A DNA stretch of 1,837 nucleotides from Escherichia coli. GTDB taxonomy: Bacteria; Pseudomonadota; Gammaproteobacteria; Enterobacterales; Enterobacteriaceae. The notes under the pieces are model-generated. The model was not told the DNA's origin and did no database searches. It worked only from the letters and a program-made list of their open reading frames with translations. The position numbers and the translations under genes were made by a program. Positions within the stretch are counted from its first letter, which is position 1. Every line of letters starts with the position of its first letter. Of the stretch, positions 1,124-1,522 are shown in pieces. Location of the stretch: assembly GCF_003334355.1 (NCBI RefSeq), contig NZ_QOWP01000079.1; one strand, given 5' to 3'.

Positions 1124-1522
1124 TTAACACTTGCCTTTAACATTGCCGACAAATGAGCCTGTAAATGAGCCTATATCAGATCGACTAATTGTTCGTGTAT
1201 GGATCACTTTTCCGTCATTTGAGATTGCCCATGTGACAAGCGTCAGTTGACCATCTCGATAGCTTCTTCCCATCATGGCATTCGGAGATAGCGGGTAATA
1301 ATCAATACCTCCACCTATACCATCTTTTGCCAAGATAAGATCCGCCTTCTCTTTACTTATTACCAAATGAAAGGTATCTGGTATAGATGATAACTTATAG
1401 TTATACCCATCTGAACTTGAGGCTTCTTGTCCTTTCAGATCACCAATAATCCAGCATTCAGCGTTCGCTCCAAAAGAAGCAAATAATAAACCGGAGACAA
1501 CCAATCGCTTCAATTGATTCAC
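1124..1522 (-). CDS. Hypothetical Sec-exported small protein (132-aa precursor, ~111-aa mature); start assigned to GTG at 1522..1520
   Basis: Stop TAA at 1126..1124 on the minus strand. GTG at 1522..1520 is preceded by GGGAGG with a 6-nt spacer, and translation from it begins MNQLKRLVVSGLLFASFGANA|ECWII, a canonical signal peptide. Alternative in-frame ATG starts at 1564..1562 and 1561..1559 have weak SDs. The six-frame ORF extends to 1837 only because the frame stays open through the IS end. Confidence 0.7.
   Translation of the reverse strand: MNQLKRLVVSGLLFASFGANAECWIIGDLKGQEASSSDGYNYKLSSIPDTFHLVISKEKADLILAKDGIGGGIDYYPLSPNAMMGRSYRDGQLTLVTWAISNDGKVIHTRTISRSDIGSFTGSFVGNVKGKC
1460..1522 (-). 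other. Predicted Sec signal peptide (21 aa) with AXA cleavage motif (ANA|EC)
   Basis: Positively charged n-region (MNQLKR), hydrophobic h-region (LVVSGLLFASFG), c-region ANA, then an acidic residue. There is no lipobox, since the Cys is at +2 after a Glu, so a lipoprotein is unlikely. Confidence 0.6.

Follow-up and report, generated by a model that had tools for sequence, protein, structure and literature searches.

A diverged Hex-family gene at the sieA site of a P22-like prophage remnant in Escherichia coli, with a predicted exported product and a probable role in superinfection exclusion

We analyzed a stretch of 1,837 nucleotides of Escherichia coli DNA (contig NZ_QOWP01000079.1 of NCBI RefSeq assembly GCF_003334355.1), hereafter referred to as the window, which carries a gene for a small, predicted exported protein with a Cys close to either end of its mature chain. 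The gene is convergent with the truncated gene of a P22 gp16-type DNA-ejection protein, and both are bordered by the ends of insertion sequences (IS) of the IS629/IS1203 group (Table 1). Sequence comparisons place the protein in the family of Hex of phage 434, and we propose that it acts in the periplasm, most likely in superinfection exclusion.

Table 1. Coordinates of the features in the window (L001 is the prophage region of E. coli 510016)
Feature	Position	Strand	Remarks
Hex-family (PHROG 2651) gene, 132 codons	1124..1522	-	GTG start 1522-1520, TAA stop 1126-1124
Signal peptide, 21 codons (MNQLKRLVVSGLLFASFGANA)	1460..1522	-	predicted signal peptidase I cleavage A21/E22
Mature 111-aa all-beta barrel-like domain (predicted)	1127..1459	-	alignment, AlphaFold model, fold searches
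Shine-Dalgarno GGGAGGG	1528..1534	-	GGAGG core 6 nt 5' of GTG
Surviving 239 bp of the gene's upstream region	1523..1761	-	highly conserved between strains, including one with a different downstream gene
22-bp perfect palindrome AGTTGCAAAA-NN-TTTTGCAACT	1740..1761	.	distal edge of upstream region; IS end abuts at 1761/1762
13-nt motif GCGCGTACTTGTC	window 1715-1727; L001 10638, 10691, 10924, 13639	-	one copy survives in the window
3' part of gp16-type DNA-ejection (injection) protein gene, last ~328 codons of 701	79..1064	+	phrog_29117, phrog_770
Listed ORF within gp16-type gene, 325 aa	87-1064	+	begins at internal ATG 87
IS629/IS1203 (IS3 family), terminal ~78 bp	1..78	-	IS body to left; database sequence matches
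Second IS629/IS1203, terminal ~76 bp, same orientation	1762..1837	-	IS body to right; database sequence matches

Translation of the minus strand between 1124 and 1522 reads V(M)NQLKRLVVSGLLFASFGANA/ECWIIG...FVGNVKGKC, the slash marking the predicted cleavage site. Re-translation left all coordinates of the original prediction unchanged, and its choice of GTG 1522 as the start, based on a strong Shine-Dalgarno sequence, gains independent support from E. coli 64A:C (L004 4006-4356, minus strand). In that strain, the upstream DNA is kept through the same Shine-Dalgarno sequence and GTG AAT and is then fused to a different gene, encoding an unrelated protein of 116 amino acids (aa) with several predicted membrane helices. 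As judged by the alignment, this arrangement is a cassette swap with its mosaic joint exactly at the start codon. The replacement gene has no tblastn match in phages and no PHROG match that would mark it as a SieA type. The Shine-Dalgarno sequence is conserved in strain ISHS7 as well as in 64A:C, and the signal peptides of 17-22 aa found in relatives agree with the GTG start. Its matches to a PHROG, to phage homologues and to clusters of representative proteins, given below, show that 1124-1522 is a genuine gene and not a chance open reading frame (ORF). Database annotation is less uniform: the Prokaryotic Genome Annotation Pipeline (PGAP) assigns 132 aa to the protein of strain ISHS7 but 146 aa, counted from ATG 1564, to that of strain 510016. 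For the window protein, start calls giving 132, 136, 145, 146, 160, 170 and 207 aa occur side by side; the mature protein is identical for every one of these starts. Two longer frames were rejected. A 237-aa ORF extending up to 1837 is artefactual, as it reads into IS sequence. The start at ATG 1564 was discarded in view of the position of the mosaic joint at GTG and of the Shine-Dalgarno sequence, which serves GTG.

The signal peptide was called by rule and by comparison with relatives. Its n-region carries K5 and R6, and its h-region, LVVSGLLFASFG, forms a 12-residue hydrophobic core (Kyte-Doolittle hydropathy of 2.29 over 11 residues) that is the sole hydrophobic segment of the protein. It ends in A-N-A at -3/-1, followed by Glu at +1. 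The segment thus has the charged n-region, the h-region of 10-15 residues, the small residues at -3/-1 and the lack of Pro at +1 that are expected of a Sec/signal peptidase I substrate. The remaining mature chain of 111 aa (~12.0 kDa; calculated mass 12,006.6 Da when reduced) contains no transmembrane segment, with a maximum 19-residue hydropathy of 0.57, and has Cys at mature positions 2 and 111 (codons 1456-1454 and 1129-1127). There is no lipobox; the residues before the first Cys are N-A-E, and since Glu precedes the Cys, the protein is probably not a lipoprotein. Likewise, E, Q, N or D precedes this Cys in 24 of the 32 aligned family members described below. The 21-aa signal peptide and the mature chain of about 111 aa opening with E-C and closing with K-C, both proposed earlier, are therefore borne out.

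The family to which the protein belongs had not been recognized in the original prediction. The only PHROG matched is phrog_2651 ('unknown function'; E=1.3e-22, residues 17-132), which is also matched by 434 Hex, by orf129 of phage Emek and by the distant relatives P0012 and P0031. BLASTP aligns the protein with 434 Hex at 31% identity over 123 aa (E=3e-21), and tblastn against phage genomes returned full-length matches of ~30% identity (E ~1e-13 to 1e-15) in phage 434, lambda-imm434, Sf6 (gene 38), HK446, HK633, Sf101, Huey and Chlobot, as well as in the P22-like Salmonella phages Emek and ST-35. The homologue in 434 and lambda-imm434 is annotated as 'repressor protection protein'. That of 434 is Hex itself: the sequence printed by Shkilnyj et al. 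(2013; PMC3564112), whose work is the sole biochemistry on the family, translates into the identical ECWIVTNLHG... product. Among 1.8 billion representative proteins, searched exhaustively with HMMER, ~33 clusters of 126-148 aa were found. Three long hits were dismissed as spurious matches to repeat proteins, either PKD-like or carrying BspA-type 'TWNIGDLSGWDTS' repeats (P0007, P0024 and P0025). A word-indexed protein search returned near-identical E. coli copies only, and a single-protein locus search only two near-identical IMG/VR loci. The exact protein is present on at least 1000 public contigs, labelled 'hypothetical' or 'Prophage protein' in the entries read. Pfam holds no family for it or for any of the 32 aligned relatives, and neither NCBIfam nor PADLOC gave a match for it. 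Moreover, many database entries of 434-type Hex are N-truncated calls of 103 aa from an internal MNGDRYEF, which lose the signal peptide and the first Cys. Taken together, these sequence matches identify the window protein as a diverged member of the known but poorly understood 434 Hex family and not as a new kind of system.

Every intact relative checked has a signal peptide of 17-22 aa with A, S or G at -1, followed by x-C-W, and ends in FVGxVxGxC, which carries the second Cys. When 32 mature sequences are aligned (mean column identity 36%), only C2, G10 and C111 are invariant, W77 and G105 are conserved in at least 90% of members, and no run of 7-10 conserved columns exists. Two Cys occur in 23 of the 32 sequences and four in the other 9, an odd number never; the extra pair always co-occurs and maps to adjacent strands in the model of the window protein. 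This pattern, together with the signal peptide, is in sequence terms the signature of an extracytoplasmic, disulfide-bonded protein, and we infer on the same grounds that the window protein is exported and forms the disulfide. The conserved residues are all structural, and none among the aligned members is a candidate for catalysis, as would suit a protein that works by binding.

AlphaFold2, run with the family alignment, predicts an all-beta fold of nine strands (predicted local distance difference test score, pLDDT, 93.9; predicted template modelling score, pTM, 0.84), in keeping with the beta-rich character noticed from the sequence. The first strand (2-14) and the last (97-110) are the longest of the model, and four strands are just 5-6 residues long. 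If the barrel is closed and antiparallel, the first and last strands would pair, so that Cys2 would lie beside Cys111. The model, the invariant Cys pair and the even Cys counts hence lend support to the suggestion of the original prediction that a disulfide joins the termini. It also named periplasmic inhibitor and immunity folds as the ones to compare; the all-beta fold is predicted with confidence, and the searches gave no specific match to either. Foldseek found nothing in the PDB below E=1e-3 (best E=4e-3, TM score at most 0.58), and a search of PDB sequences with the family profile found nothing even at E<=10. Against AFDB50, Foldseek returned uncharacterized enterobacterial family members and then weak calycin-like and phycobilin-lyase barrels. 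The calycin-like small barrels compared (lipocalins, FABP-like proteins, avidins, the NHBA C-domain and the PknI sensor domain) share 4-12% identity with the protein and no motifs. Compared with lipocalins and other calycins, the model is barrel-like in general, and no lipocalin profile matched. As far as the model goes, the similarity is one of generic fold and not of family.

Judged by the gene neighborhoods, the family behaves as a mobile accessory (moron) gene that has arrived at three sites. The first, convergent to the gp16 gene, is occupied in the window, in intact E. coli prophages, in phage Emek and in loci L006 and L012-L014. In Emek, orf129 is convergent to the gene-16 homologue, and mnt, arc, ant and the tailspike gene come next. 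This is the 'ant moron' or sieA site: P22-like phages keep sieA between genes 16 and 9 (PMC10461980; PMC2629481). Of 66 such phages, only 22 have sieA, and mutations that escape SieA map to gp16 and gp20 (PMC10461980). Emek has its copy between the homologues of genes 16 and 9; the remnant prophages of E. coli that were examined lack the gene 9 side or have it rearranged. L012-L014 carry two tandem paralogues convergent to gp16 (in L012 at 3359-3745 and 3778-4164, plus strand), both in L012 with a signal peptide and ECW...FVGDVxGKC, which suggests a diversified specificity. The second site, directly after cI, is used in 434, HK446 and Sf101, and the corresponding place in Sf6 (gene 38) and HK633. 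It is the position that lambda uses for rexAB, and Rex-type accessory genes use the PRM transcript of the repressor (PMC3564112). At the third site, in a siphovirus-type prophage, the gene (P0012; L007/L008 5001-5384, plus strand) separates the tail genes from the tape-measure gene, and in L008 it also adjoins rexA/rexB homologues. The exclusion moron gp15 of HK97 is found between the tail chaperone and tape-measure genes (PMC3594210). L006, L007/L008 and L012 are metagenomic prophage contigs, and one further family member adjoins an integrase. A different setting was observed for P0031, a member of the four-Cys subfamily (L010 1-8411 and L011 1-6251). It stands in a run of more than ten small same-strand genes with spacers of ~80-140 nt, encoding HEPN-like, DUF4272, DUF1761 and DUF6678 proteins, which looks like an integron-type cassette array. 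No phage genes are visible around P0031 in either locus.

We favor, with moderate confidence, the reading that the window gene encodes an exported, Sec/signal peptidase I-processed periplasmic prophage moron of the Hex family whose function is most likely superinfection exclusion. Sec would export the precursor and signal peptidase I would cleave it after Ala21, giving a soluble periplasmic beta-barrel of ~12 kDa with its first and last strands stapled by a Cys2-Cys111 disulfide. Its gene is a moron at the sieA/ant-moron site, convergent with ejection-protein gene 16 and immediately downstream of it. The barrel may bind the DNA-delivery apparatus of an incoming phage, that is P22-type gp7/gp20/gp16 or a siphovirus tape measure, or alternatively a host envelope factor that this apparatus needs. 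Superinfecting DNA would thereby be kept from the cytoplasm. This model is suggested by the combination of the Hex phenotype, export, a stapled barrel with a variable surface, the tandem paralogues and the recurrence at sites of exclusion genes. The phenotype in question is the requirement for 434 hex in the exclusion of P22 by lambda-imm434 lysogens of Salmonella, as reported by Susskind and Botstein (1980) according to the citation in PMC3564112. As a more tentative extension, the Hex family might comprise widespread soluble, stapled periplasmic barrels that sit at exclusion-gene sites and block a trans-periplasmic DNA conduit by a mechanism distinct from those of SieA, gp15 and Imm; the 'repressor protection' annotation of 434 could then be an artefact of a mis-defined ORF and a half-barrel fragment.

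Several points weigh against this proposal. A cytoplasmic role has been assigned to 434 Hex, since sHex, a fragment of 61 aa, inhibits RecA-stimulated cleavage of the 434 and P22 repressors and partly complements the hex defect in vivo (PMC3564112). The exclusion of P22 by 434 Hex may reflect either a block of injection or abortive infection. The fold searches yielded no relative of known function. Some members, such as those of L010/L011, lie outside recognizable prophages, so that the function of the family may exceed phage exclusion. Finally, no convincing sigma-70-like promoter was found on the strand of the gene in 1523-1761.

The last point raises the possibility that the gene is a silent relic in this particular genome, its prophage being degraded and its promoter removed by the IS629 inserted 240 bp upstream. 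The prophage is indeed a P22-like remnant. Bases 1-78 and 1762-1837 have matches in thousands of plasmids and chromosomes of enterobacteria, in records that read 'IS3-like element IS1203 family transposase', and the match to intact prophages begins at 78 and ends at 1761/1762. The left IS cuts off the 5' side of the gp16-type gene, of which the listed ORF (phrog_29117 at E=3e-176, also phrog_770) represents the last 325 residues of a 701-aa protein. In intact prophages, the best promoter-like site, TTGCCA-16-GATAAT, is found ~430 bp before the start, past the IS junction. With only a remnant of the prophage left and IS629 in place of all sequence more than 240 bp upstream, expression in the window genome is uncertain. 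On the other hand, the coding sequence, the Shine-Dalgarno sequence and the 239 upstream bases are 100% identical to those of intact copies, and the block shared with the alternative cassette of 64A:C covers the same stretch. As this conserved block spans 1523-1761, the real promoter may lie inside it. Moreover, the ends of IS3-family elements can drive outward transcription. We therefore consider a silent gene possible but unlikely, and this alternative concerns expression in the window genome only, not the identity of the gene.

Other features of the upstream region and of the prophage are recorded here for completeness. The arms of the 22-bp palindrome are identical in three strains, with variation in the central dinucleotide, and the IS terminus lengthens the inverted repeat to arms of 21 nt with 81% complementarity (1729-1749/1752-1772). 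The palindrome could be an operator, a hairpin or a target preference of the IS. Four copies of the motif GCGCGTACTTGTC lie on one strand of the intact prophage region, inside a span of 3 kb; three are exact and one has 2 mismatches, where 0.28 would be expected by chance. Rfam gave sub-threshold noise only, and the convergent intergenic region (1065-1123) folds no better than its shuffles. The 1.68-kb segment between the IS ends (78-1762) is 100% identical to a chromosomal segment in 124 of 5,426 complete E. coli genomes, annotated there as 'injection protein / P22-gp16 family phage DNA ejection protein' plus 'hypothetical protein'. Since both IS ends point the same way, they enclose the fragment in the manner of a composite element. 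The left IS/prophage junction was found neither in any complete E. coli genome of the collection nor, by exact search, in the GTDB representative genomes. The 'intact' context in E. coli 510016 (L001 1-19685) is itself a mosaic or remnant. Its gp20 and gp16 homologues come after a P4-like TOPRIM/DUF927 primase and an Icd-like gene, head genes and gp7 being absent in between, and the other flank holds a PerC-family regulator, three tRNAs and a lysis cassette.

If the protein is made and exported, it might still benefit the lysogen otherwise than by exclusion, through binding or inhibition in the periplasm. It could inhibit lysozyme or another peptidoglycan hydrolase, serve as an orphan immunity protein that counters a periplasm-acting toxin (colicin or type VI secretion system effector), or be a calycin that binds small ligands. 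However, none of the 32 members matches a MliC/PliC, Ivy, lipocalin or immunity family in Pfam, and no profile or motif of the lysozyme inhibitors MliC/PliC, Ivy and PliG was matched by the window protein. The family profile finds no sequence relative in the PDB, and no pocket or motif residues are conserved past C, G, W, G and C. In addition, the gene recurs at three classical exclusion-gene sites, and phage exclusion is the sole genetic phenotype attached to the family. We thus regard a non-exclusion role of this kind as rather unlikely.

A cytoplasmic 'repressor protection protein', which would bind a LexA-like prophage repressor, prevent its RecA-stimulated autocleavage and stabilize lysogeny, appears improbable. 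It is the function under which the homologue is annotated in the phage 434 record, and besides the activities of sHex described above, replacement of hex raised spontaneous induction 30-fold, in recA+ hosts only (PMC3564112). The text of that paper makes no mention of a signal peptide, the periplasm or a membrane, while the cleavable signal peptide and invariant, even-numbered Cys predicted throughout the family are not expected of a cytoplasmic protein. Several observations in the paper would agree better with an exported protein. The Hex ORF used there starts 24 codons upstream, inside cI. Compared with L002 (3010-3414), sHex starts at E43, which is the predicted signal-peptidase +1 residue (ANS/ECW), and it ends at N103, which in the model would be mid-barrel. 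Full-length Hex was lethal on overexpression and could not be recovered or purified (PMC3564112), as would be typical if a secretory precursor were over-produced. To make the hex mutant, a cat cassette was put in place of the Hex coding sequence, defined as an ORF overlapping the 3' end of cI (PMC3564112), so that an effect on cI itself is conceivable. The window gene and many relatives adjoin gp16, the tape-measure gene, an integrase or cassette arrays and lack a repressor neighbor, which makes a repressor-specific role of the family unlikely. On these comparisons, inhibition of repressor cleavage is doubtful as a family property. Very improbable, finally, is an outer-membrane mini beta-barrel or lipoprotein that would mask or alter a phage receptor in the manner of Cor or Llp, given that four strands of 5-6 residues in a chain of 111 aa are too short to span a membrane, that the C-terminus is Cys/polar whereas outer-membrane beta-barrels usually end in an aromatic residue, that charge is balanced (12 K+R vs 12 D+E) and that the residue preceding Cys in 24 of the 32 members is incompatible with a lipobox.

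The link to 434 Hex gives a very common 'hypothetical' protein of enterobacterial prophages a testable function, phage exclusion. Conversely, the family-wide signal peptide and invariant Cys pair indicate, at the level of sequence, that Hex itself probably works in the periplasm. A periplasmic Hex would explain the puzzles of 2013, namely the lethal overexpression, the fragment that starts at the cleavage site and the missing full-length protein. These features challenge the sole published molecular mechanism for Hex and call into question an annotation that is spreading in phage records. If our proposal holds, a small soluble protein would offer a convenient probe of how P22-type ejection proteins assemble their periplasmic conduit.

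No relation in sequence or fold to any characterized protein was detected in searches of Pfam, NCBIfam, PADLOC and, with the family profile, the PDB. The nearest comparison is with the family itself. The window protein shares with 434 Hex, Sf6 gp38 and Emek orf129 its PHROG, length, signal peptide, x-C-W start and FVGxVxGxC end, and all are encoded by prophage accessory genes, that of Emek at the identical position convergent to the gene-16 homologue. In contrast, 434 hex and Sf6 gene 38 lie directly downstream of cI, with co-transcription from PRM shown for 434 hex (PMC3564112), whereas the window gene forms a unit of its own at the sieA site, and since identity to Hex is only ~30%, its target specificity may differ. 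P22 SieA (types A, B and C) is encoded between genes 16 and 9 of P22-like prophages, the site at which the window gene, adjacent and convergent to gene 16, would also lie. SieA, expressed from the prophage, blocks DNA injection, with escape mutations in the neighboring gp16/gp20 (PMC10461980). It is, however, an integral inner-membrane protein of 162-164 aa with three or four transmembrane helices and no signal peptide, while the window protein has a predicted cleavable signal peptide, no transmembrane segment and a predicted all-beta fold, and its sequence shows no similarity to SieA, including the cytoplasmic FnRYPnEAnnFNK motif. The role proposed here would thus be analogous to that of SieA in outcome but physically different. 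HK97 gp15, likewise a small envelope protein that blocks genome entry, occupies the moron site shared by some family members (P0012, L007/L008); it is a small YebO-like inner-membrane protein without homology to the family, and the window gene is at another site. Soluble or anchored exclusion proteins of the periplasm, such as P1 Sim and T4 Sp, carry a signal peptide or face the periplasm, and they halt infection once the phage has adsorbed but before its DNA enters the cytoplasm. For an exported exclusion factor, they would provide the closest functional analogy, one of mechanism only.

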